Source: Gloeobacterales cyanobacterium (GTDB lineage: Bacteria; Cyanobacteriota; Cyanobacteriia; Gloeobacterales; PMM-0068). Taken from it: a stretch of 64,000 bases of DNA. The notes under the pieces are model-generated. The model made no database searches and had not been told where the DNA came from. It saw only the letters and a program-made list of their open reading frames with translations. Below, in pieces: positions 44,570 through 58,335 of the stretch. The position numbers were made by a program, and so were the translations under genes. Within the stretch, counting starts at the first letter, position 1, and each line of letters opens with the position of its first letter. Location of the stretch: positions 54,161-118,160 of the forward strand of contig JBBRSB010000012.1 in NCBI GenBank assembly GCA_038245785.1, in the 5' to 3' direction.

Positions 44570-45981
44570 ACTCGCGAAAGACCCTATCCGCATTCCTTCG
44601 ACAAGCCCCTCGATGTGGCTCGGGGACCGCTCAGGAACCATGCGGTAGGGATGGACCGAGTCCTGGTAGGATAGCGCGGGGCGTTAGCCTCAATACTAGA
44701 ATATTTTAGGGAAACAAGAATCTTATGATTAAGCGATGATTGTCCTAGAATTCAAGCTCAAAGGCCGTTCTGAGCAGTTTCAAATCATTGACGAAATGAT
44801 TAAAACTGCTCAATTCGTCCGCAACAAGGCTTTGCGATTCTGGATGGATAATCATGGAGTCAAGCCCTACGACCTCAACAAATACTGCAAAGTCTTGGCC
44901 GATAACCCTGAGTTCCCTTGGGCCAAAATGCTCAATTCCTAAGCTCGCCAGGCCAGTGCAGAACGTGCAGCCTTCGCCATCCAACGATTCTTCGCGAATT
45001 GCAAAGCTAAGAAATCAGGAAAGAAAGGCTACCCCAAGTTTCAAAAGAATAACCGCTCGGTGGAATACAAAACCACGGGCTGGAAACTCTCTAAAGATAG
45101 GCGCTTCCTGACGCTCATAGATACCTTCGATGCTGGCAAGTTTAAGCTCATTGGCAGTCGTGACCTGAACTTTTACCAAGTGGCTGAGATTAAACGTCTA
45201 AGAGTGGTCCGTCGTGCTGATGGTTACTACGTCCAGTTCTGTGTAGCGGCAGAGCGCACTGTAGAGCTAACACCCACAGGTAAGATGCTGGGTATAGATA
45301 TGGGATTGGAGTCTTTCTATACCGATTCACAAGGTGAGAAGGTAGAGAATCCACGCTTTCTCAAGAGAGCCGAACAAAGTTTAAAACGATTACAGCGGAG
45401 GGTATCGAAGAAACAGAAAGGCTCTAAGAATCGAATCAAGGCGATTAAACGTTTAGCCCGGAAGCACTTGAAAGTATCTAGACAGCGTAAAGACCATGCG
45501 GTTAAGGCTGCACGGGCGCTAATCCTATCTAGCGATGTGGTGGTCTACGAGAAACTGCAAGTGCGTAACATGGTCAGGAATCACTGCTTGGCCAAATCAA
45601 TTAGTGATGTTAGTTGGAGCATATTCACCGGATGGGTGGACTATTTAGGGAAAGTATTTGGCAGAATCACGATAGCGGTGGACCCTGCTTATACTTCTCA
45701 GGAATGTCCTAAGTGTCATGCATTAGTGAAGAAGTCGCTCTCTACCCGTACCCATGTTTGTAGATGTGGATGCGTGATGGATAGAGATGAGGCTGCAGCG
45801 CTTAATATTCTGCAAAAAGGAATCCATTCCCCCTTGTGGGGATTGAAAACGTACCCAGGGGCACTGGGGAACGCAACGCTTATGGAGAGTTTAGCCGCTA
45901 CTGGATTAAGTGCAAGCTTAAGTCAACAAGCTATCTCGTAGAAGTAAGAATCCCCATCCGCCTTGCGGTGGGGAGTGTCAA
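44570..45981 (+). mobile_element. IS200/IS605 family element (tnpB only, IS1341-like)
   Basis: Related subterminal hairpins CCCTATCCGC..GCGGTAGGG (44582-44650) and CCCCATCCGC-CTT-GCGGTGGGG (45952-45973); right end TCAA at 45978-45981; left boundary approximate. Confidence 0.85.
44736..45941 (+). pseudogene. tnpB: RNA-guided endonuclease TnpB with one in-frame stop
   Basis: Single frame with TAA at 44940-44942 (LNS*ARQASAERA); RuvC motifs GIDMG, VYEKL and DRD; CPKC..CRC zinc finger. Confidence 0.9.
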
Positions 45982-46474: not shown

Positions 46475-47833
46475 GTGCTTTCGTCCACTCGGTCCACTAT
46501 TAAGCCTGCCACAGTAACACGGGTACTTCCGGAGTCTATCGCCGAAGAATTGGGATTTGAGCCGGGAGATCGTTTAATTTCGATCAATGGCACGGCTCCC
46601 CGTGATTTGATTGATTACCAATTTCTCTGTGCCGATGATGTTTTGACCTTAGAGGTAGAAGACGCTGAGGGTGCCCGTCATCAGGTGGAACTAGAGAAAG
46701 AGTATGACGAAGATCTAGGCCTGGAATTCGATTCAGCACTTTTTGATGGTCTAATCCAATGTAACAACGGCTGTTCTTTTTGCTTCATTGACCAGCAACC
46801 AGAAGGATTGAGAGGAACGCTTTATCTCAAAGATGATGACTATCGCTTGAGTTTCCTTTATGGTTCCTATCTGACCCTGACCAATCTCCCACCCCAAGAA
46901 TTCGAACGTATTGCTCAGATGCGCTTGTCTCCGCTCTATGTATCTGTCCATGCGACAGAGCCAGACCTGAGAGCCAAACTGTTAAAAAATCCACGGGGAC
47001 GGCTGTTACTGGAACAGTTGGCCTGGTTTAAGAAGCATGGTTTAGAGATCCATGCTCAGATTGTGCTTTGCCCTGGATTGAATGATGGCGAACAATTAGA
47101 CCGAACGCTGACAGATTTAGCTTCGTTCTATCCAACCGTACGCTCGGCTGCCGTGGTCCCGATTGGTCTTACGCAATATCGTCCCGCCGATGATGATATG
47201 GTCTCTGTGACCCGCGCCAAAGCGGAAGAAATCATTGAGCAAGTGCTTCCGTACCAAAAACGCTATAAAAAACAGCTCGGTACTTCTTTCTCCTGGCTTT
47301 CGGATGAATGGTTTTTGTTGGCAGGTCGTCCTTTGCCTCCAAAGAAACACTACGAAGACTTTCCCCAATTAGGCAATGGCGTTGGTTCTCTACGTAAGTT
47401 TGTACACGAGTTCCAAACTGCCAGCGCTGCTCTACCAAAATTGATTTCTGAAAAACGTCGCTACACCTGGGTGGTCGGCAGTGCAGTCAAAGAAGCTTTT
47501 GCACCGATTGCAGAACGATTTAATCAAGTCGAAGGATTAACCGTTTCTCTCACAGCCATTCCCAGCTTATTCTGGGGCCAACAAGTGAGTGTCACTGGTC
47601 TTTTGACAGGTCAAGATATTCTTCAAGGACTCGCAGGCCGTGACTTAGGAGATGCCCTTTTATTGCCAGCGCTAACCCTAAAAGATGGCAGAGAATTTCT
47701 TGATAGCGTAACTGTAGATTTTCTGGCTCAAAGTTTAGGAATTCCTGTTCTCGTAGTTCCTTCTTCCGCTCAGGCACTAGTCGAAAGCGTTAATATGCCC
47801 TTGCCAGTTAGAGTAGAAGTCTCTTATTTGTAG
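46475..47833 (+). CDS. PDZ/DUF512 Fe-S radical SAM-like protein (TIGR03279 family)
   Basis: N-terminal PDZ-like domain, CNNGCSFCFIDQ, KDDDYRLSFL, NGVG. Confidence 0.92.
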   Translation: MLSSTRSTIKPATVTRVLPESIAEELGFEPGDRLISINGTAPRDLIDYQFLCADDVLTLEVEDAEGARHQVELEKEYDEDLGLEFDSALFDGLIQCNNGCSFCFIDQQPEGLRGTLYLKDDDYRLSFLYGSYLTLTNLPPQEFERIAQMRLSPLYVSVHATEPDLRAKLLKNPRGRLLLEQLAWFKKHGLEIHAQIVLCPGLNDGEQLDRTLTDLASFYPTVRSAAVVPIGLTQYRPADDDMVSVTRAKAEEIIEQVLPYQKRYKKQLGTSFSWLSDEWFLLAGRPLPPKKHYEDFPQLGNGVGSLRKFVHEFQTASAALPKLISEKRRYTWVVGSAVKEAFAPIAERFNQVEGLTVSLTAIPSLFWGQQVSVTGLLTGQDILQGLAGRDLGDALLLPALTLKDGREFLDSVTVDFLAQSLGIPVLVVPSSAQALVESVNMPLPVRVEVSYL

Positions 47834-47944: not shown

Positions 47945-48004
47945 ATCTAATATTGAAAATCGGCGGCTCCGCTAATGCGGAGCCGCTAGATTGACTTGTT
48001 ATAC
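47945..48004 (-). other. Degenerate integron attC site
   Basis: GTATAAC-AAGTC-AATCTAGC-GGCTCCGC ATTA GCGGAGCC-GCCGATT-TTCAAT-ATTAGAT: canonical box spacing, R' core G changed to A; 1 bp after the stop of the 48006 gene. Confidence 0.75.
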
Positions 48005-48005
48005 A

Positions 48006-49061
48006 TCAGTTTATCCAGATAGATAAATTCGCAAACTCGCCGACCATGCGCTTGATATTGGCATGACCAATCGCAATCCCAACGCTGGTAAGTGTGAAGT
48101 TCTTCATCGCAGATTCTGACCATGTTGCAAAGAGGCCAGACATGTAGGGTCTAATTTCGACGCACTTATCTTTGATTTCTATGTCACTCATTTTCCCAAC
48201 ATCAAACAGGGCAATGATTTTGGCACGATCCTCAGTTGAAATGGCATGTTCCTCAAATGCCTTGTCTAATAGTTCTTTGCTATTGGCGCAGACCTGAAAT
48301 TTGGATGGGTCATTAAGGCACGGAATGAAGAATCTCGGATCGCTTCCTATAGAGACCCCCATCTCCGTAATGTCTTTTTCCTCAAACCCCTTTAAGAACT
48401 GTCCCTGATAGGTTGTGCCCAATAGGGACTCAAGGCTTCTTTCTCCAAGCCCAATTGCTCCACTACCGGAAAACTCAAGATGTTGATAGCAGGCTATATT
48501 CTTTACGACTTTTGAAGTAAACGGAGCGACATAATTGTCAAGGTAATCGGCAAGCATCTGATGATTGCCAACATCGAAATTCTGAGTGTACTTGAACAGA
48601 AATATCAAAGCCAAGACAGCAAGCTGACTGTCAGTTAACTTGGGTGCTGTGTTTAGAGACTCGTTGAGGACAATTTGTAAAATGTCGCGCTGTTCTTGCT
48701 TGCTTCTATCAACCAAAAGATCAACAAGAATGTCTCCAAGTTCCTTATCGCCATTTCTGGCGTGTTCTTTTTGGACTGTAAAGAGCGCATACTGAAAATC
48801 TGGATCGTCCGATTTCTCAAACCCCAATGGGTTTTCTTGCTGAAGCTTGGACAGGAATTTCTCTGTGATTTCCTCAGCTCTGGCTTTGGCTGTTTCTTTT
48901 GCAACTCCCGCAAGTTCATAAAAGTTCGCTTTAAAGACATCAAGGGCAACATCTCGAACTTCAGCGTAAGTTAATCCATTCTTTGTGATTGTGATATTGC
49001 CAGCTACCTGGATTGCAGTGCTGCCCTCGGCGACGTTTTGTTTTTGGTCTTTATTTAGCAT
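48006..49061 (-). CDS. LPO_1073/Vpar_1526-like hypothetical protein (cassette gene)
   Basis: AIQVAGNI, VRDVALDVFKANF, DPDFQY, LTSVGIAIGHAN; family recognised from memory; ATG at 49061. Confidence 0.7.
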   Translation of the reverse strand: MLNKDQKQNVAEGSTAIQVAGNITITKNGLTYAEVRDVALDVFKANFYELAGVAKETAKARAEEITEKFLSKLQQENPLGFEKSDDPDFQYALFTVQKEHARNGDKELGDILVDLLVDRSKQEQRDILQIVLNESLNTAPKLTDSQLAVLALIFLFKYTQNFDVGNHQMLADYLDNYVAPFTSKVVKNIACYQHLEFSGSGAIGLGERSLESLLGTTYQGQFLKGFEEKDITEMGVSIGSDPRFFIPCLNDPSKFQVCANSKELLDKAFEEHAISTEDRAKIIALFDVGKMSDIEIKDKCVEIRPYMSGLFATWSESAMKNFTLTSVGIAIGHANIKRMVGEFANLSIWIN

Positions 49062-49302
49062 TTTTGTCACCGCTAATGTCTCCGATACTCACGTCTCCGC
49101 CAGCCTGTACGCCTATGGAAGATTTTGAAACGGACTGGTACTGTTGCGCTCGCCGTGCACTGCGTTTCTCAACGACAAACAATGACACTAACACCGAAAT
49201 TGAGCTTAAAACCGCAAGGGCTGGCTCGAAACCTGGGTCCGAAACGACCCAAGCAATTGAACCTATCAAGGCGATAACAGCGAAGAACTTTATGTAGGAC
49301 AT
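49051..49302 (-). CDS. Small two-TM hypothetical protein (cassette gene)
   Basis: AGGAGG RBS preceded by GTTAGGC (49324-49318); overlaps the start of the next gene. Confidence 0.75.
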   Translation of the reverse strand: MSYIKFFAVIALIGSIAWVVSDPGFEPALAVLSSISVLVSLFVVEKRSARRAQQYQSVSKSSIGVQAGGDVSIGDISGDKNAK

Positions 49303-49490
49303 ACCCTACCTCCTGATGCCTAACTCTTATTAGCAAGAGAAAATCTGCTTAATCACCTGTACAGCATACTAGACAGATAAGCTCTCCGTATTGTTTACAG
49401 GAGGCGATTTCGCTATGAGAAGACAAGCAATGGCTGATAAACCTTTGCTACACCGAGGAGGGTGACCTAACGTTACACGTATAATTGACT

Positions 49491-49649
49491 CAAACTACAG
49501 AACTTGATGCTCTCATCACTAAAACTCGCATTAGGATTGAAAAATTCCAAGAATATCGACGATTCTCCAAGGGAAAGGCTGCACCAGCGTTCATCACTGA
49601 AGCCGTCGCAGGCAAAATGGATATTAACAACTTAGAACAGGAGACGTGA
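49491..49649 (+). pseudogene. 3' remnant of a type I R-M specificity subunit (HsdS) with a 24-nt insertion
   Basis: QTTELDALITKTRIRIEKFQEYRR[FSKGKAAP]AFITEAVAGKMDI resembles the HsdS C-terminal IDALI..EYR.ALI..AVTGKID motif. Confidence 0.7.
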
Positions 49650-49652
49650 ACA

Positions 49653-49895
49653 ATGGCACAACTAATCCTCAGCGACATCGATCCCACTATTTTAGAACAG
49701 CTAAAAGTCCGCGCCGTCAATCATCAACGTTCCATAGAAGAAGAATTGAAGGCGATCTTGCAAGAGGTAATTGAAACTGAGCAGATTGCTAAAATGAACG
49801 CTTTTAGAGAACAGGCCGCACAGATGCGACAAGCCTTATCTGGTCGGGTTCATACCGATAGTGCAGCACTGGTGCGAGAGGATCGCGACCGATGA
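49653..49895 (+). CDS. FitA-like ribbon-helix-helix antitoxin
   Basis: MAQLIL.DID..LKVRA..HQRSIEEE; DSAALVREDRDR tail; overlaps the PIN gene. Confidence 0.88.
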   Translation: MAQLILSDIDPTILEQLKVRAVNHQRSIEEELKAILQEVIETEQIAKMNAFREQAAQMRQALSGRVHTDSAALVREDRDR

Positions 49896-50326
49896 TGCAT
49901 TATGTTGTTGACGTTTGCGTTGCCGTAAAGTGGTTTGTGCCAGAAATATTGAGCCAGGAAGCAGCAAGATTGCTCAGCGGCAGCTATAGTTTGCTAGCAC
50001 CCGATTATCTACTAGCAGAGGCAGGTAATGTCTTTTGGAAGAAAATTCGTTTCAATGAAATCAGCCTACACGAAGGGCAGCAAGCTTTAACTGCAATCCA
50101 AAATTCGCCGATGCAATTAGTAGACTCAAAACCCTTGCTTCGGGGTGCTTTTGACTTAGCGAATCAGTCAGGTCGAAGTATTTATGATTGTTTCTATTTA
50201 GCATTAGCAATTCGCGAGAACTGTCAGATGGTAACCTCTGATGAAAAGTTTTTTAATGCCATGAGAAATACAGCTTGGGCTACATCACTTTGCTGGGTAG
50301 AAGATTTACTAGAGGAAACCCCATGA
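49892..50326 (+). CDS. PIN domain VapC toxin
   Basis: VVDVCVAVKWF, E, IYDCFYLALA, TSD acidic residues intact. Confidence 0.9.
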   Translation: MMHYVVDVCVAVKWFVPEILSQEAARLLSGSYSLLAPDYLLAEAGNVFWKKIRFNEISLHEGQQALTAIQNSPMQLVDSKPLLRGAFDLANQSGRSIYDCFYLALAIRENCQMVTSDEKFFNAMRNTAWATSLCWVEDLLEETP

Positions 50327-50556
50327 ATATCATTAAACCCTCAAAAGATAACGAACATCAGTTTGTCGATCTGCCCCAAAACTATCAGATTGAGGGGGAA
50401 GAAGCCTATATCAAAAAAGTCGGTAATGTCATCCTCCTGATTCCCAAAGACAACCCCTGGCAAATCCTATTCAGCAGTCTAGAATTACTCTCCGATGATT
50501 TTATGGAACAGCGAGAACAGCCATCCCAGCCAGAACGGGAGGCATTGTTTGAATGA
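50323..50556 (+). CDS. VapB-like (AbrB/MazE) antitoxin; downstream toxin reduced to a short stub
   Basis: LP..YQIEGEEAYIKKVGNVILLIP...DDFMEQREQP; overlapping ATG 50553 gives only MRFLL before diverging from a PIN start. Confidence 0.8.
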   Translation: MNIIKPSKDNEHQFVDLPQNYQIEGEEAYIKKVGNVILLIPKDNPWQILFSSLELLSDDFMEQREQPSQPEREALFE

Positions 50557-50688
50557 GGTTTCTGCTGGGCTATATAGCGAGAGGAAGTGCGGTGAAAGGT
50601 GATTAATAATTTGGGGAATAAGGTAATAAAAGTCTTTAGTATCAGCTAATGTGAACCAGAGAGAGTGCATCGATTACTGGAGGAAATA

Positions 50689-50931
50689 ATGCGTAAAGAA
50701 ACGATTCAATACACGTCGCCACTAGATGCACTAATCGCAGTTGCAAAGCGGTTGAGTGTTTACGAAAGTAAGCAACGGATAGACTCAGAGGAGTTTTTTG
50801 ACCAATATAGTCGGGGACAGCTCTCAGATGATGTCGTATTCGTCGAATGGGCCAATGATTACAACCATTATCTCGCTCTACGCCGAGACCTAGAGAAAAA
50901 GTTGCAAGTCATGAGTTCGCTCGATAGTTAG
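50689..50931 (+). CDS. TumA-like antitoxin, copy 1 (orphan)
   Basis: 68/73 aa identical to the 53555 copy; no toxin downstream; family name from memory. Confidence 0.7.
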   Translation: MRKETIQYTSPLDALIAVAKRLSVYESKQRIDSEEFFDQYSRGQLSDDVVFVEWANDYNHYLALRRDLEKKLQVMSSLDS

Positions 50932-50987
50932 CCTTAATGGGTGAGGTCAATGTTAGGAAGTAGAAAGCTTTAGGTTTATTGATTTGT

Positions 50988-51413
50988 CTATTCGGGTGGA
51001 TGTTCATTCATGATTGTGAGAACTCGACGCATATTAATTACGCCCTCACGGTTGGTTTGAAGAAGGTCGGTCGTAGCGCGTCCAGATGGTGTAATCCCTA
51101 GCATCTTTGTCGCATCTGCATTCCAAGTAAAATGCTCATCCCAGTTCATTTGCCGAGGATGGAAAAGTGGAACGACTTGGTTTGTCACTGGGTCTAAGGC
51201 TTCAATTTTGGTGTATTTGTAGTTGTTGCAGGTTTGGCAGGAGAGCGCAAGATTTTCTGCTGTTGTTTTACCATTTCGGCTAACGGGTTGGATGTGGTCC
51301 ATTACAAATGGATCGACCGCATATTTTGCCTGACTATGGCAATATTCACACATTCCACAGGCGCGATCGAAGACAAGTTGCCTCAATGCAATGGGAATGT
51401 ACTCACTAGACAT
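50988..51413 (-). CDS. HNH endonuclease
   Basis: CEYC, DHIQP, NLALSCQTCNNYK, LFHPR. Confidence 0.92.
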   Translation of the reverse strand: MSSEYIPIALRQLVFDRACGMCEYCHSQAKYAVDPFVMDHIQPVSRNGKTTAENLALSCQTCNNYKYTKIEALDPVTNQVVPLFHPRQMNWDEHFTWNADATKMLGITPSGRATTDLLQTNREGVINMRRVLTIMNEHPPE

Positions 51414-51780
51414 AGTTTACAGGCTGGATGCCGAGGGTTTCCATGAGCTGTTGGAGGGAAACTTCGCGTAGTTGGGCAAGGTTGGCGAGAGCTTCAAGGC
51501 GTTGAGCACCGAGTTGTTCGATTTGGTTGCTAAGTTGGATGAGGGTGTCATATTCAAGGTCGGTGAGATTTTCGGCTTCGCGTTTGGCACGGAGGACTTG
51601 GTATTGGGCACGGAGTTCTGGGGGAATGCCTTGGTTGATTTTGTCGAGAAGTTGGGCTTCTTCTGCAGGAAGGACATGGGCTTTGCGTTGGGTACGCAGG
51701 ACAACAACCTGCTGAAGCAATCGCTCGAGGTCAGTTCCGTCGAGTTGATTAGCGGCCTTGATGAGTTCGTCGAGGCTCAT
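51406..51780 (-). CDS. HNH-associated small protein (putative antitoxin)
   Basis: EAQLLDKINQGIP..RLEALANLAQLR; overlaps the HNH start. Confidence 0.75.
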   Translation of the reverse strand: MSLDELIKAANQLDGTDLERLLQQVVVLRTQRKAHVLPAEEAQLLDKINQGIPPELRAQYQVLRAKREAENLTDLEYDTLIQLSNQIEQLGAQRLEALANLAQLREVSLQQLMETLGIQPVNYV

Positions 51781-51884
51781 GGGGACTTGGTGAGTTACGG
51801 TCGTTTCTCCATTATCTCATTTTGCGGACTAACTATTTATTAGGTTGCAAAACGGTTGTTCGACTTCGGTGTATTCAGACATGT

Positions 51885-52142
51885 TTACTGAAGTCGCTCA
51901 AAGTCAGTATCTTCCCCAACGTTGGGGATTTGGATTAATGCGTCTGCGAGCGGTGGAGGAGTCGCGGCTTTATTGGCTGTCTGCGGCGCATCGTCTCCTA
52001 CTTGGATGGGGCAACCATCTTGCCAGAGCACTGCATATTGTCCGAGACGCTTCTTTCTGTCGAGATCCTTGGCTACAGCATCTCGCAATGCCTTAAGCAT
52101 AGCGATGGACTCTGGTGAAGGTGGAACAGACTTAACGATCAT
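51885..52142 (-). CDS. Small partner of the zeta-like ATPase
   Basis: [26 protein letters not shown] overlap with the ATPase stop. Confidence 0.7.
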
Positions 52143-52717
52143 GGCGTGACCTCCTTTAAGGTGATGAGATGTTGGTGATGGGTGATATTCACAATGTTAA
52201 GGAGTTCGCCCTGTTGTTCAAACACCAACTCTGGCAGTGCGTTGTTGTTCATAAAACAGCGGCAGATATCCACTTCTATGCTGAAAATATCTAACAGATT
52301 GGTGAGGCTGCGGGCAAAACGCCGATTGATATCTTCTATTGGTATATTATGCCCGCCATGGGCAACACGTTCGGCTACTCGCAGACGAGACATCTCTAGG
52401 CTAGGCAGGGCCAAATAGATCAGCTCTACTCGCCAGCCTTTGGCGCGCAAACGGCGCACGAGTTTGAGATAGCTGCGCCCTGCGAGGGTGGTCTCAAACG
52501 CAAAGTCTTCTGTTTGCTGGATACAGGTCTCGATTTCTCTGAGAAACAGGCGGCTGGCAGTCAATAAGTCACGATCGGTGTCCAGCGGAGATAATCCAGC
52601 AGCAATCAGGTCGGCATTAACAAAACGTTTACACTTCGCCACCTGCGGCAAATATTCCAACGCGAAGGTAGTTTTGCCCGCGCCATTGGGGCCAGCAATA
52701 ATCCAGCAGGTAGGCAT
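52139..52717 (-). CDS. Zeta-toxin-like P-loop ATPase
   Basis: [29 protein letters not shown]. Confidence 0.88.
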
Positions 52718-52794
52718 TAGGTTGTTTCCTTTTCGGATTCATTAATGATTTGCCAGTTTTGGGCTGGCAACTGCCGTAAAAACAGCTGTTCGAC

Positions 52795-52905
52795 TTCGGC
52801 TAACGGGTTGGATATGGTCAATGACAAATGGGTCGACCGCATATTTTGATTGGCTATGGCAATATTCACACATTAATGAGTTCGTCAAGGCTCATGGGTA
52901 CTTGG
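52795..52905 (-). pseudogene. Internally deleted second copy of the 50988-51780 operon
   Basis: 52795-52874 matches 51275-51354; 52876-52905 matches 51761-51790. Confidence 0.85.
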
Positions 52906-52996
52906 GGAGAGGAATTAAGATTGTTTTTACTATAAACACGCTTATCGGGCTTTCATCATGACCCTTAAATTCTCACTTTGCAGGTTAACTCTCAAG

Positions 52997-53173
52997 ATAC
53001 AAGACAGACAGCCTTTCCGTATTGTTTGCAGGAGGCGATTCCGCTAAGAGAGACAAGCAATGGTTTATCCACCTCTGCTATACCGAAGAGGGCGACCTAA
53101 AGTTGGACTTAGATGAATTCCAACGTAGTAAATTGCAAGAAATTTTCCGTCTGAGTGCCTATAAGAAATCTTA
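52997..53173 (+). pseudogene. 3' remnant of an unknown gene; second decayed copy at about 49366-49470
   Basis: YKTDSLSVLFAGGDSAKRDKQWFIHLCYTEEGDLKLDLDEFQRSKLQEIFRLSAYKKS*; the copies differ at several synonymous third positions. Confidence 0.65.
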
Positions 53174-53211
53174 GAGGCGGTAGCTATGACTAACCAACCA
53201 GAGGTAGAGCC

Positions 53212-53463
53212 ATGAAACAGCTGAGGCGAATTACCTTGAATCCTGAAGTTATGGGCGGTAAACCCTGCATCCGAGGGCTGCGAGTTACTGTCGGCATGAT
53301 GGTTGGTCTACTTGCTTCGGGTCACTCTATCGAAGACATCCCCAATGCCTATCCATATCTGGAACGAGAAGATGTCTATGAGGCCCTGTCCTACGCTGCT
53401 TGGAGAGCTTATGAAACATTGAAGTTCCTTGTACATTGGCATAGAAGTCTCTTGGGTTTCTAG
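53212..53463 (+). CDS. DUF433 family antitoxin (3' end probably frameshifted; usual partner absent)
   Basis: RITLNPEVMGGKPCIRGLRVTV, YPYL, EALSYAA; an IEVP tail appears in a shifted frame. Confidence 0.88.
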   Translation: MKQLRRITLNPEVMGGKPCIRGLRVTVGMMVGLLASGHSIEDIPNAYPYLEREDVYEALSYAAWRAYETLKFLVHWHRSLLGF

Positions 53464-53554
53464 TTAGGGGCAGAGTTTGGGAGATGAAATAATAAAAGTC
53501 TTTAGTATCAGCTAATGTGAACTAGGGATAAGGTATCGATTGCTGGAGGAAATA

Positions 53555-53785
53555 ATGCGTAAACAAACGATTCAATACACGTCGCCCCTAGATGCACTAA
53601 TCGCGGTTGCAAAGCGGTTGAGTGTTTACGAAAGTAAGCAACAGATGGACTCAGAGGAGTTTTTTGACCAATATAGTCGGGGACAACTCTCAGATGATGT
53701 CGTATTCGTTGAATGGGCTAATGATTATCGCCATTATCTCGCTCTGCGTCGAGATCTAGAGAAAAGTCTGCAAGATGTTGCATGA
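53555..53785 (+). CDS. TumA-like antitoxin, copy 2
   Basis: GGAGG RBS; overlaps a DUF6516-like gene. Confidence 0.7.
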   Translation: MRKQTIQYTSPLDALIAVAKRLSVYESKQQMDSEEFFDQYSRGQLSDDVVFVEWANDYRHYLALRRDLEKSLQDVA

Positions 53786-54029
53786 GGCTCTAGCAGGCTA
53801 TCTTGATAGAGTTGAACGAGCAATCCTCCGTTGCAGCGATATCTATGTAGAGCATTACATCGAAGAGATTTTGACACCGGAGCGAGTGATTCTTCGAATT
53901 CGTATCCGCTTTGCTCGGCGATGCTTACTTGAAATTAATGAAGCGGTTGTGGTGTTAGAAAATAGGCTTTTACCACTCGATTATCGCTATCACTGTCAGG
54001 ACCAACAAAATCGTTTAGTTTTCCGCTGC
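53775..54029 (+). pseudogene. DUF6516/TumE-like toxin truncated after RLVFR
   Basis: LEINEAV..DYRYHCQD..NRLVFR, then unrelated sequence; the expected YD..PH..PHHKH motif is missing. Confidence 0.7.
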
Positions 54030-54407
54030 ATTTTTGCCTATGCGTTCCATGATGACTGTGGCAACAATGTTGCTAGTTGGCAAGAAAGCATGAACGACCG
54101 GAACGCTTACCTCATCTGTGATCTACGGTGCAGATGTCTCCGAAACGGCTACAATTCCATCATTCGGTTCGTCGTGGAAAACCTTGAACGTGGCGCGGAC
54201 GCCGCGTACCCCAAAAATCCCAGTGGTTGGTGCCATTAGAGGACCAACGGACTTCATTCGCTCATCCGATGCGAGCAATTTGCCGCAATCTTGCGTAACG
54301 ATTCTATAGATTGGGTTGTGTTGAAGCAGTCTCGCTATGCAAGCCGACCTAATAGGCGAACCAAGAAGAAATACCCGGATTGGCGGCCGAGTATTTTTGG
54401 GATACAC
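54015..54407 (-). pseudogene. C-terminal alpha/beta hydrolase fragment with an internal TAG
   Basis: RPPIRVFLLGSP...NDGIVAVSETSAP*ITDEVSVPVVHAF; TAG at 54123-54125. Confidence 0.6.
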
Positions 54408-54434
54408 ATCATACTCTAACGCTGCAACGATAAA

Positions 54435-54463
54435 GATTCTCTTGCAGAGAGGCTATGCCAACG
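54435..54463. repeat. Short dispersed repeat related to 49561-49589
   Basis: GATTCTCTTGCAGAGAGGCTATGCCAACG versus GATTCTCCAAGGGAAAGGCTGCACCAGCG (19/29 identical). Confidence 0.6.
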
Positions 54464-54486
54464 GGTCGAGGCTTTCCCCTAATGTC

Positions 54487-54819
54487 TCACTGATGTGGAA
54501 GAAAGCCTGTGACCTTGGATTTGAGAAGCCTCACGAGTGATGGATCCATAAACTTGTAGTTGTCTGGGATGTTGAGGCAGACTACTCGCGTATGAGACAG
54601 ATATTCCTTGTAGCGTGTAGAGAGTTTTTCTTTGTGTACTCGCTCCATGACGAAGATGATGTCTGCCCATGCGACCAACTCAGGAGTTAGCGGGTTTTCA
54701 GCGTCGTGGTTGAGACCAGCAGAGGTACACTCAATTCCTGGAGTCTCGGCAAATATCTGCTCTGCCGTTGGGCTTCGCCACTTGTTTTGACTGCATACAA
54801 ATAGAACCTTTGTTGTCAT
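54487..54819 (-). CDS. Low-molecular-weight protein tyrosine phosphatase family (cassette gene)
   Basis: LFVCSQNKWRSPTAE (Cx5R), SAG, WADIIFVME, LNIPD; ATG 8 bp after GTTAGGT. Confidence 0.9.
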   Translation of the reverse strand: MTTKVLFVCSQNKWRSPTAEQIFAETPGIECTSAGLNHDAENPLTPELVAWADIIFVMERVHKEKLSTRYKEYLSHTRVVCLNIPDNYKFMDPSLVRLLKSKVTGFLPHQ

Positions 54820-54827
54820 AGGTCAAG

Positions 54828-54897
54828 ACCTAACATTTGCCATAGGCAGTGGCTAAGACAAAGCTTTTTGGCTCTCTGATTGATGGAAGGGTTAGTG
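54828..54897 (-). other. Integron attC site (70 bp)
   Basis: CACTAAC-CCTTC-CATCAATC-30 nt-GCCTATG-GCAAAT-GTTAGGT; the TAA of the upstream frame lies inside R''. Confidence 0.8.
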
Positions 54898-55100
54898 GGC
54901 ATTCTGCAGCCAGCGGGTGGCTTCAGATCGGATAGTGAGGTTCAGTTCTGACCAAGCCTCCGCACCATATCTTCCATTGAATGAGATGTCATTCGGACCT
55001 TCCTTCAAATCGTTGGCTTCCCAATGAAGCCCAACGAGAATCTCAATATGGTGAGAATCTCCAAGATATTTCTTGGCTGGAGTGTGAAAGTCATAGTTAC
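54892..55100 (-). pseudogene. 5'-truncated cassette ORF ending in the attC R'' box
   Basis: Open frame ...NYDFHTPAKKYLGDSHHIEILVGLHWEANDLKEGPNDISFNGRYGAEAWSELNLTIRSEATRWLQNAH* with no start of its own; 5' boundary approximate. Confidence 0.6.
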
Positions 55101-55202
55101 TAGGTGTTCGTAGCTATCTCCCCAAGTGTGACATCCTGGGAGAGCAGGTACAGAACGACACCAGACATCATCATCCTGCCAGATAATAGCTTTAATTTTC
55201 AT
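55095..55202 (-). pseudogene. HicB family antitoxin, 5' half only
   Basis: MKIKAIIWQDDDVWCRSVPALPGCHTWGDSYEHL then fused to unrelated DNA; 3' boundary approximate. Confidence 0.75.
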
Positions 55203-55250
55203 GATCCCTACTCTCCTGTGCTCTATACATTTTAGGTCAAGCCGTTACGT

Positions 55251-55502
55251 CTAACTGATGAGCTTGTCATATTCCACATGAGTGCCAATCCACACCCATG
55301 AAATACCATCTTTGACTTCAACTCCCAATGCTCTGTAGCCTTTCCCAACCCGTACTAACCAGTATTGCCCAATTTTTTTGAAGTGTAGGGATGGATGTGA
55401 TGGGTCTTTCTTTAAAAATTCATAATTTTGGTCGGCGACTCTCTGAACTGACTCTGGCAAAGCGTTATAGCATTTCCAAAATCGCTGTGTTTTGTAGTGC
55501 GT
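55251..55502 (-). pseudogene. ParE/RelE-like toxin, start codon ATG changed to ACG
   Basis: (ACG)HYKTQRFWKCYNALPESVQ..DPSHPSLHFKK..WIGTHVEYDKL; expected TAATG overlap reads TAACG. Confidence 0.75.
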
Positions 55503-55702
55503 TAGAGCGCACGGCAGTTGCCCGCTTCAAATTCTGCCAGAGCTTATTGGGCAAGAAAATCAAGTTTCCCTGCCTCCATATCTTTCTCGAGTTGCTCATC
55601 CCACCGCTGCTCGTCTAAATCCAAAACCCAATCTGCAAGCTGAGTTAACTCTTGAGGTGAAAGTTTGAGAATCGCGGCTTCAATCTGTTCAACTGATGAC
55701 AT
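55502..55702 (-). pseudogene. Cognate antitoxin with a nonsense codon
   Basis: MSSVEQIEAAILKLSPQEL..WDEQLEKDMEAGKLDFLAQ*ALAEFEAGNCRAL*; TAA at 55544-55546. Confidence 0.75.
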
Positions 55703-55720
55703 TACGTAATGAAGGTTGTT

Positions 55721-55942
<222 letters not shown>

Positions 55943-56007
55943 TTATTAAACTCACTAGAGGTTGGTTCGCTGTGTAAACACAAGTTTAAACCAACTCAAA
56001 TCTGCAT

Positions 56008-56092
56008 CTGAACCGCCCCCTAAATCCCCCAATTCTGGGGGACTTTGAGTGTAGAACCCCCCAAAGTTGGGTAGCAGAGGGGCGAAATTCAG
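56008..56092. repeat. Composite GC-rich palindromic repeat (cyanobacterial REP/BIME-like)
   Basis: CTGAA..CGCCCC / GGGGCG..TTCAG outer arms; inner TCCCCCAATTCTGGGGGA and CCCAAAGTTGGG hairpins. Confidence 0.75.
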
Positions 56093-56143
56093 CGACATCA
56101 AATTTATTCCTAGGTTTTGATATACCGTAGAGTAGTTGATGGA

Positions 56144-56914
56144 TTATGACTCGTTCCGCTTTCGCCGTAACACAAAGCCATCTTTCCGCTTAAATACATA
56201 ACTCCCATCCTTTTTCAAGATAGCGATAAAGCCGTCGTTAATCCCGATTAGGAACCCCTCATGAATTGTTTTTCCTTTTTCATCGATAATAAAAGAACAA
56301 TTATTCCACTTTGACTTTTCATCGATGTGGCACCCTTTTTCAAGGAACAATTTGATTTGTTCAGTAGCAGTAAATTGCCCTTTGGCATAAGGCCACAACG
56401 AAAGCAAAGCCCAGAGAAGGGCTACCGTTATTAACCCGGTTGCGAGAACTACAAAGGAGTACCAAGTTATGAAGACGATGCCGATTGACTTGGTGAAATC
56501 CCCGAAAACGATCTCTTTAACCTTCTCAAACTGCTTATTTGCAGAGGGCTTAGTTGTTTTTTGCATGGCTTTTTGAAGGCCATACAGGACTCCAACAGTC
56601 AGAACGAAACAAGTTACTACCCAGAAAACATTGGGTGAGCTAGTGAGCCTATTTGGCCCTTCCCCTACAACTTTTGCAATTTCCCATAGAAAAAAACTGA
56701 AGACTTGATACGAATATACGTAAACCATTTGTATGGAAATAGATAAGCCACCGCTATCAACACCAAATGCACTCATATATCCATCATAGTATGCGAAGCC
56801 GAAGAGGTAAGCAATCGGAGCAAGAACAGCAATTATAGCAACCAATAATGCTACAACTCCGGAAATCATCTTAACGTAATTATCAGCAGTCTTGGGGATG
56901 TCATCAGTAGGCAT
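56144..56914 (-). CDS. Low-GC multi-TM hypothetical protein
   Basis: 256 aa, about 4 hydrophobic segments, AT-rich. Confidence 0.75.
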   Translation of the reverse strand: MPTDDIPKTADNYVKMISGVVALLVAIIAVLAPIAYLFGFAYYDGYMSAFGVDSGGLSISIQMVYVYSYQVFSFFLWEIAKVVGEGPNRLTSSPNVFWVVTCFVLTVGVLYGLQKAMQKTTKPSANKQFEKVKEIVFGDFTKSIGIVFITWYSFVVLATGLITVALLWALLSLWPYAKGQFTATEQIKLFLEKGCHIDEKSKWNNCSFIIDEKGKTIHEGFLIGINDGFIAILKKDGSYVFKRKDGFVLRRKRNES

Positions 56915-57120
56915 ATTTATCTACCAAACTAATATTTAAAAGGATTGCACGGCACACTTTTAGACAGGATTGTATAGGCAACCACTGAAGAATTTATTTG
57001 GACAAGCACATTAGGAATTCTGCATGGTAACTAGGAGTTGCAGCCAATGAGCTCTTTCCCCAATAATCAAGCCGAAGTTTACCACTGTCATACATATAGT
57101 AGTAGACTACATGGAGTCAT

Positions 57121-58335
57121 TTGTCCACAAAGGCTATGTTAGATTTCCTAAAAGTCGCTCAACAGATGCGGGGCATCGGTCGTTCTCTCTCCGACGAATC
57201 GAAATCATCCCAACGGCGCTCAGAACGAGCCAAAGAATTGTTGGAGACCTTGGCTCAAAATCAGGATGAAACCGTGGAGCGGATTCTGCCGCAACTGGCG
57301 AAAATCACCTTTAGAGTGGCAGAGCCTGTAGAAGATTTAGTGGTGGATGGACAGTGGGGTCGAGCTATTGCTCCGATTGCCAGAAATCACACCGTATTTG
57401 CAAGTGATGGATCGCAGATTAATCCCAGTCATCATGAAATTGCTTACTGCTACTTGATTAATGTCGGTCGGGTCTGTCTCCACTATGGAACTGGACTGCG
57501 CCCCACGCTGGATAGCTTTCCCGAAGTTTATTACAAAGAAGAAGACCTCTATAGTTCCTTTCAGTGGGGATTAAGCGTAGAAGATTGGTTAACGATTCGG
57601 AGAGCGAGAGCGGAAGCAGTAGGACTGACGAACCTCGTGCTGAAACATCAACCCCAGGAAGGTACCCCCTCCGTTGCGATGGTAGACGGCTCGCTGGTCC
57701 ACTGGAATGTAGAACAAGCCTATACGCCCTACCATCCAGAATTACTGCAACCGCTCTTGGAAGCCTGGGATGGTTTACGAAAGGCCAAGATTCCTCTGTG
57801 TGGCTATATAAGCTCCTCTCGAAGTTCTGACGTAGTGAACTTTGTTCGGGTTCAAGCCTGCTCCCACGAGACGCCGGACTGTGAACGTCATTGCGCCCAG
57901 CAACCTCCCCGCTTGACCCCCTGCGGCAATGGTTTATTCCCAATGACGGACTGCAAATTATGGGAAAAGTTACTCCAACCCGGTGAACGTTCGGCAATGT
58001 GGCGCAGTACTGCTCGCATCACAGACCTTTACGGTCCCCATCAGGTCTATTTCTGCTATTTGCATGTCGGTTCAGAAGTGGCACGGGTAGAGTTTCCCCA
58101 ATGGGTGGCTCTCGACCCTGTACTGCTAGACCAAACCTTGGGCGCTTGTCTCTCGCAGGTAGAACGAGGCTATGGCTATCCCGTCGCTCTGGCTGAGTCT
58201 CATAACCAAGCCGTGGTTCGCGGCGCCGACCGAGCCAGATTCTTCTCTCTCCTGGAAGAAGAGTTGGTTAGAGCTGGTTTGGCCGATGTGCGGGTATCTC
58301 ACAAAGAAAATCGCAAACGGGGCAGCATTGCTTAA
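57121..58335 (+). CDS. NurA domain nuclease
   Basis: ASDGSQ, MVDGSL, GYGYPVALAESHNQAVV. Confidence 0.9.
   Translation: MSTKAMLDFLKVAQQMRGIGRSLSDESKSSQRRSERAKELLETLAQNQDETVERILPQLAKITFRVAEPVEDLVVDGQWGRAIAPIARNHTVFASDGSQINPSHHEIAYCYLINVGRVCLHYGTGLRPTLDSFPEVYYKEEDLYSSFQWGLSVEDWLTIRRARAEAVGLTNLVLKHQPQEGTPSVAMVDGSLVHWNVEQAYTPYHPELLQPLLEAWDGLRKAKIPLCGYISSSRSSDVVNFVRVQACSHETPDCERHCAQQPPRLTPCGNGLFPMTDCKLWEKLLQPGERSAMWRSTARITDLYGPHQVYFCYLHVGSEVARVEFPQWVALDPVLLDQTLGACLSQVERGYGYPVALAESHNQAVVRGADRARFFSLLEEELVRAGLADVRVSHKENRKRGSIA

Follow-up and report, generated by a model that had tools for sequence, protein, structure and literature searches.

A decaying integron array with several attI platforms and no integrase of its own, next to nurA in a Gloeobacterales cyanobacterium

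In a Gloeobacterales cyanobacterium (assembly GCA_038245785.1) the DNA between a TIGR03279 gene and nurA holds a decaying integron array that lacks its own integrase and has several attI sites with captured genes behind them. The window is the whole 64,000-nucleotide stretch of contig JBBRSB010000012.1 that was analyzed (positions 54,161 to 118,160). G000 denotes the source genome, other G-numbers genomes, C-numbers contigs (the window lies on C12), L-numbers loci and X2-X4 runs. Homology of the attI sites, the attC sites, cassette boundaries at G/TT, an intact intI on C2 and the splitting of one platform (B) are directly established. We consider it reasonably probable that this is an array without integrase, with two or three tandem attI, into which an IntI encoded elsewhere in the genome likely inserted the cassettes. 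A preliminary description, made from the letters of the DNA alone, had presented a plain cluster of attC sites at a hotspot. This picture does not hold, because attI platforms are present at the locus and the genome encodes an intact intI. The parts of the array are as follows.

47945..48004 (minus strand): attC1, at the end of the two-gene cassette, with a strong hairpin and an A in place of the crossover G (folding and covariance model)
48006..49070 (minus strand): gene 2 of the two-gene cassette, LPO_1073/Vpar_1526 family, 354 aa (NF045477, E 5e-97)
49051..49302 (minus strand): gene 1 of the two-gene cassette, 83 aa, hydrophobic N-terminal half, overlapping gene 2 (L040 and L041 have the same pair)
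49318..49474 (minus strand): orphan attI platform C, with G/TT at 49324/49323 (hidden Markov model, HMM)
51829..51844 (minus strand): right half of split platform B, attI core CCTAAT-AAATA-GTTAG (pattern search)
52984..53001 (minus strand): 18-nt scar of the left end of an insertion sequence (IS) of the IS110 family, in an attI repeat half-site
53002..53104 (minus strand): left half of split platform B (83% identity with platform C across 109 nt)
54487..54819 (minus strand): low-molecular-weight phosphatase cassette, own attC undetectable (profile match and attC search)
54828..54897 (minus strand): attC2, decayed, with the G of R' intact (folding and covariance model)
54892..55098 (minus strand): 3'-terminal piece, about 66 codons long, of the cassette gene to which attC2 belonged, truncated by a hicB fragment
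56144..56914 (minus strand): membrane-type open reading frame (ORF) of 256 aa a few bases after platform A, a probable cassette (position)
56921..57048 (minus strand): probable decayed platform A beside nurA (both congeners have a clear platform there)

GTTAGGC at 49324 is the end of a platform of about 150 nt that is homologous to the platform adjacent to intI. With an HMM built from 11 copies outside the window platform C was recovered at E 2.2e-11, and it aligns to the platforms of C2, C3 and C30; its L-to-R spacer is one base short. The halves of platform B are separated by a 1.2-kb insert that bears the IS110 end scar. The core pattern of its right half occurs four times genome-wide, the other three occurrences being at attI platforms; the reversed genome yielded no match. 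In a contig of run X2, which comes from an independent study, a putative orthologous locus has 51843 and 53005 connected by 39 letters recognisable as attI repeat. Platforms C and B combine homology to the intI-adjacent platform, an L box and GTT, followed by a cassette. Platform A aligned to the C3 copy better than 999 of 1000 shuffles and to G001 better than only 930 of 1000. Both congeners have a platform beside nurA (E 4e-15 and 7e-14) with differing DNA downstream.

Both attC sites have box spacings and lengths (60 bp for attC1, 70 bp for attC2) within the known attC range of 57-141 bp. Read on the minus strand, attC1 consists of R'' GTATAAC, a 5-nt spacer, L''/L' and R' ATTAGAT, and attC2 runs from R'' CACTAAC to R' GTTAGGT; relative to the RYYYAAC / GTTRRRY consensus, R' of attC1 begins with A and R'' of attC2 with C. 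A covariance model (R1) was trained on nine attC from other contigs of the source genome, none of them from the window. Among its eight matches in the 64-kb window attC2 ranked first (23 bits, E 0.0066) and attC1 second (18.7 bits, E 0.06), the third scoring 10.4 bits, and both fell exactly at 47945-48004 and 54828-54897, where the preliminary description had placed them. In a genome-wide scan, which scored 150 of 509 candidates, attC2 reached only E 0.51 and attC1 was absent among the 28 matches listed. R1 missed a 117-nt attC on C9 that was found by eye and by folding (z -3.8). The attC1 hairpin is far above shuffled sequences (z -5.8 and -6.8, none of 200 shuffles being as good), and attC2 folds no better than shuffles (z -0.2 and +0.6).

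The unit 49324-47952 has the properties of a gene cassette: a G/TT start, ORFs, an attC end and recurrence as a unit elsewhere. The ATG of the 83-aa gene lies 22 nt beyond the G of GTTAGGC. The phosphatase ATG follows attC2 after 8 bp and the TAA stop of the 5'-truncated ORF falls in R'' of attC2; the cassette start, the 8-bp gap and the stop are all in the sequence as first described. A likeness of attC2 to aacA4-type sites was borne out for an intact member of its family on C52, which matches aac(6')-Ib regions (76% over 64 nt), but not for attC2 itself, which has no match to those regions. Searched against plasmids, attC2 gave three weak matches, the one in Acaryochloris being a short direct repeat and not an attC. 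The proposed C-to-T decay was only weakly testable: by hand count 6 of about 10 differences between the arms of attC2 and the intact family member are C:G to T:A, the reference not being ancestral, and among the strain differences across the region the two directions of transition are about equally frequent, so that ordinary drift accounts for the decay of the attC sites.

No TIGR02249 match was found on C12. The preliminary description was right that the window has no intI and overlooked the one intact copy in the genome, at C2:301-1266 (321 aa, 480 bits against a cut-off of 265), which has no stops and retains the catalytic motifs. A broken, frameshifted copy is on C8 and 5' fragments occur elsewhere. 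Across 31 genomes searched, 12 have intI above the cut-off, the source genome included. Textbook attC arrays lie on C25, C38, C40, C52, C81 and C213; those on the small contigs C81 and C213 are array pieces with eight near-identical attC, of sedentary type and unlinked to intI in the assembly. Upstream of intI at nine loci in seven other cyanobacterial genomes the DNA has tandem repeats of about 40 nt that lead to an L box, a spacer and GTT. Within the source genome three HMMs found 33 attI-like loci (E 0.01, training copies included), spread over 25 contigs, whereas the reversed genome gave no match. An ORF of at least 60 aa starts at most 150 nt downstream at 22 of 27 attI sites, compared with 505 of 1000 random positions. 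Excision of intI at a fixed secondary site was considered and is unsupported, the remnants ending at varied positions.

The attI of the intact intI is cut by an IS110 at the contig end (C2:1-300), and C52:1-3740 opens with the second end of the IS, the rest of an attI and four attC matches; C2 or C53 may join C52 as a complete integron. At C52:2213-2413 an attC runs straight into attI repeat, beyond which come a terminal attI core and a further gene, an arrangement that suggests insertion at upstream attI repeats as one route to stacked platforms. A second attI-headed region at a contig end (C9:126800-131396) carries paralogous HNH pairs behind the 117-nt attC.

Beyond the source genome a mixed attI model (R2) gave matches at E 0.001 in 17 of the 31 genomes, or in 10 of 24 when its seven training genomes are left aside. 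In the single contig of G020 four attI copies without intI (C1:259839, 780211, 1342222 and 1944886; L160-L163, L172-L175) lie far from intI and are nearly identical to the intI-adjacent attI. About 480 nt are common to the four at 99%, including a 151-aa ORF that is not intI and belongs to no Pfam family. The copies diverge at G/TT, where different attC cassettes follow (3, 1, 1 and 1). Elements near the copies are presumably of IS1 type, as we judge from protein sequence. The four copies descend from one integrase-less unit, and their cassettes therefore changed afterwards, most simply, it would seem, through an IntI acting in trans.

A full IS110-family element is located at C7:26195-27487, inside an attI repeat, and ends of it are found at C2:147, C53:12453, C9:131263, C52:134 and window 52984-53001. 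All seven ends (four left, three right) are in attI repeat half-sites. A guide-like 9-mer in the left end co-varies with the element's own left flank (C7 compared with C9 and C52), and a 6-mer in the left end matches the right flank, with a CT core. A relative in G005 (81%) has other guides and other sites. The bridge-RNA model for IS110 predicts such matching of guide and flank (PMC11208160), and the element here appears to carry left and right guides of this kind for the flanks around the core. IS1111 elements aimed at attC are known (PMC11187229). Since the leader of a cassette starts at GTT within the IS110 scar, this leader was inserted after the IS had arrived.

A copy of the two-gene unit with 82% DNA identity across 1299 nt is present in L040, from another cyanobacterial metagenome-assembled genome, where it has a GTT start and a different, likewise decayed attC end (R1 E 0.89 only; fold z -0.9) and lies between dndE and HNH genes; no intI was found within 6.2 kb of sequence around it. 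There (L040:836-2335) the cassette stands behind an orphan attI (38 bits), in a phosphorothioation (dndE) neighbourhood. The L040 attC also has an A at the crossover G, a hint that locking of this cassette recurs. The gene pair is also present in Caballeronia (L041), without att sites, and a third upstream context occurs in runs X2 and X4. More than 100 relatives of the large protein at 70% or more were found, the named ones in several phyla, and it is widespread in metagenomes; none of 400 sampled cyanobacterial genomes has it at E 1e-60, and no relatives were found in the viral contigs or plasmids searched. Of 80 loci with phosphatase homologues, five have attC matches and the other 75 have none; the two closest relatives (77% and 75%) have attC on both sides. 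The suggestion that foreign cassettes were acquired at this locus is in keeping with these distributions, and the two-gene unit and the phosphatase are likely integron cassettes of foreign origin.

A possible role of these genes in defence, also put forward in the preliminary description, is unsupported for the two-gene cassette and is a prior drawn from the company of the genes, not a result. PADLOC gave no match on the cassette. One of 141 relatives of the large protein matches Abi_alpha (E 0.007), and the identity is not supported by comparison of the profile with one Abi_alpha protein (probability 0.3%); DUF2806, at 0.75, is a lead only. The predicted structure is confident (pLDDT 91.9); Foldseek found no match at E 0.001 in PDB or viral libraries, and structure comparison gave a best Z of 7.9 among helical bundles, with no fold match. 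Literature on the LPO_1073/Vpar_1526 names yielded nothing beyond a proteomics mention. No sigma-70 promoter or terminator pattern was seen in 49250-49700. Runs X2-X4 leave the two-gene cassette, FitAB and the 256-aa ORF largely uncovered, which by itself is no evidence.

In the right-hand part no relatives were found for the truncated ORF before attC2 and no family match for the 256-aa ORF. Possible attC remnants downstream of the phosphatase (54414-54470) and of the 256-aa ORF were considered and are unconvincing. Window 55970-56100, just after the 256-aa ORF, is a member of a dispersed repeat family of about 110 nt with dozens of genomic copies. The flanks and the remaining genes, most of them of toxin-antitoxin (TA) type, are the following.

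46475..47833 (plus strand): TIGR03279 radical SAM gene, left flank (679 bits, above cut-off)
49653..50556 (plus strand): FitA/PIN TA pair and a lone vapB, on the strand opposite to the cassettes, no att sites seen
50689..50931 (plus strand): tumA copy 1, within a 299-nt repeat 90% identical to 53476-53774
50988..51780 (minus strand): HNH nuclease gene and the partner upstream of it, likely a TA pair; the start lies some 50 nt past the attI core, no attC after it
51885..52717 (minus strand): zeta-like AAA protein with a partner (likely TA pair), in the insert that splits platform B
52795..52989 (minus strand): broken second copy of the HNH pair, leader starting at G/TT (52989)
53212..54027 (plus strand): DUF433 gene, tumA copy 2 and truncated tumE
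55092..55942 (minus strand): hicB fragment, ParE-like gene and two small TA-type ORFs
57121..58335 (plus strand): nurA, right flank (PF09376, E 2e-43)

TA genes occupy the gaps in both orientations. Paralogues of several of them occur elsewhere, at 85-90% for the HNH pair and vapB. The TA modules that had been described as interleaved with the attC sites are indeed present in the gaps, but not as cassettes: only the HNH pair has a cassette-type G/TT start, and no attC was detected after any TA module of the window. The C9 paralogue of the HNH pair likewise has a leader that starts at G/TT, there after the 117-nt attC. TumA/TumE match the PADLOC candidate PDC-M44, with tumE broken here. Two short stubs at 51840-51883 and 52717-52800, flanking the zeta-like pair, seem similar to the start of a type I restriction subunit. 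To the left, at window 44736-45941, a tnpB of IS200/IS605 type lies in two frames and is missing from the equivalent place in both congeners.

The following course of events would account for the locus. A platform beside nurA would have been inherited within the genus, with early loss of intI, and IntI acting in trans would have put cassettes both at attI and at GTT sites of secondary type. Platform B would have been split by an IS110 that targets attI repeats, and the array may afterwards have been filled by resident TA modules and broken up by them and by deletions. The two-gene cassette is now likely locked in place, attC1 having lost its crossover G and platform C having a short spacer. 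More tentatively, many cyanobacteria may hold a distributed integron, in which one IntI serves tens of attI without intI. These sites would multiply by IS-linked copying and by riding in arrays after insertion at upstream attI repeats, with the IS110 bridge RNA programmed against the repeats, and the present locus would be a stacked, ageing example.

Several observations weigh against loading in trans. No recombination event was observed. Neither congener draft has intI, and the congener contigs break before TIGR03279, so that linkage of the platform to this gene is not visible. Platform C reached only E 1.5 with an HMM from other genomes alone and E 0.026 with R2, though it was the best window match of R2; platform A was missed by the HMM. 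At only 5 of 20 further loci of the source genome were attC matches found (E 0.5). Homologous exchange between identical copies could also have produced the cassette differences in G020. In addition, a 5' remnant of intI persists at about 11 of the 35 attI sites tested (a further score, on C52, was judged spurious), which implies that many orphans are simply relics of whole integrons.

A rival view is that the locus is itself a plain relic: at least one complete integron would have stood here, taken up every cassette in cis and then lost intI by deletion, with no service in trans. The remnants, the frameshifted intI on C8 and the decay of every att site at the locus agree with it, and integrase loss is a recognised route to clusters of attC sites lacking an integrase (CALINs) (PMC4889954, PMC8618304). 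We nevertheless find it unlikely, because none of the three window attI sites has an intI remnant beside it, tandem platforms B and C are 83% identical with the same GTT-like starting boundary, and the four G020 copies come from one intI-less unit and differ in their cassettes.

Another alternative is an off-target route, by which IntI would have dropped cassettes at genomic sites (attG) in a TA-rich hotspot and left two separate single-attC elements. Insertion by attC x attG recombination is reported to be efficient (10.1101/2022.09.11.507474), the leader at 52989 starts at a GTT inside the IS end, which is attG-like, and the two attC are 6.8 kb apart. Against this, the junction at 49324 is the end of a 150-nt attI homologue and the same two-gene cassette stands at an attI in L040. 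Moreover, attI is reported not to recombine into genome sites at a significant rate (10.1101/2022.09.11.507474), which leaves the attI copies unexplained. As an account of the locus this route is improbable; for the two-gene cassette it appears largely refuted, and for the 52989 event it may hold. Next to no credence can be given to the notion that the attC-like sites are hairpins arisen by chance among decaying TA genes, which is refuted: attC2 folds like its shuffles and genome-wide E-values are weak, but the sites are the top window matches at exact coordinates, the cassette boundaries are conserved in other genomes and the attI homology is present.

If cassettes were indeed loaded in trans, dedicated orphan attI would be an origin of some CALINs and single attC sites lacking an integrase (SALINs), as opposed to insertion at random or mere loss of the integrase. 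With a cyanobacterial attI motif that can be searched for, capture sites overlooked by attC-based tools would come to light. Natural landing pads for one integrase, and an IS110 directed to them by RNA, would be directly testable and possibly useful for cyanobacterial engineering, the present locus itself being decayed. No publication that describes a multiplication of orphan attI in cyanobacteria, or an IS110 that targets attI, was found; subscription journals and the supplements of integron surveys, which may list such loci, were outside the scope of this search.

Like CALINs and SALINs (PMC4889954; 10.1101/2022.09.11.507474), the locus has attC cassettes without a nearby intI. Half of CALINs are in genomes that encode IntI (PMC4889954; 10.1101/2022.09.11.507474), and mobilisation of such cassettes in trans is stated in 10.1101/2025.06.18.660453. 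By analogy the locus may function as CALINs or SALINs do when an integrase acts on them in trans (PMC4889954, 10.1101/2022.09.11.507474, 10.1101/2025.06.18.660453, PMC8618304, 10.1101/2022.02.06.479319). The term CALIN, used in the preliminary description, suits its two attC without intI nearby, but their spacing exceeds the default 4-kb clustering threshold; they would cluster at 10 kb. The definitions ignore attI, which cannot be searched for in most integrons (PMC4889954), whereas the cassettes here lie at recognisable attI, several of them tandem. The platforms resemble attI1 of class 1 integrons (PMC12901181) in their L box, spacer, GTTRRRY R box and upstream direct repeats, and delta-attI cassettes, in which attI fragments within arrays can recombine (PMC12901181), offer a further parallel. 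In contrast to both, the cyanobacterial platforms have more and longer repeats, occupy tens of chromosomal loci and head cassettes instead of closing them. Sedentary integrons of Xanthomonas (10.1101/2025.06.18.660453) likewise have a vertically inherited platform at a fixed gene neighbour, an intI that is often lost or eroded and conserved CALIN positions; no multiplied attI is described in the available text of that study. Finally, the IS110 element shares with the IS1111-attC group and with IS110 bridge-RNA elements (PMC11187229, PMC11208160) a CT core and guides in a non-coding end that match an integron site, which is the attI repeat here and attC in the IS1111-attC group.

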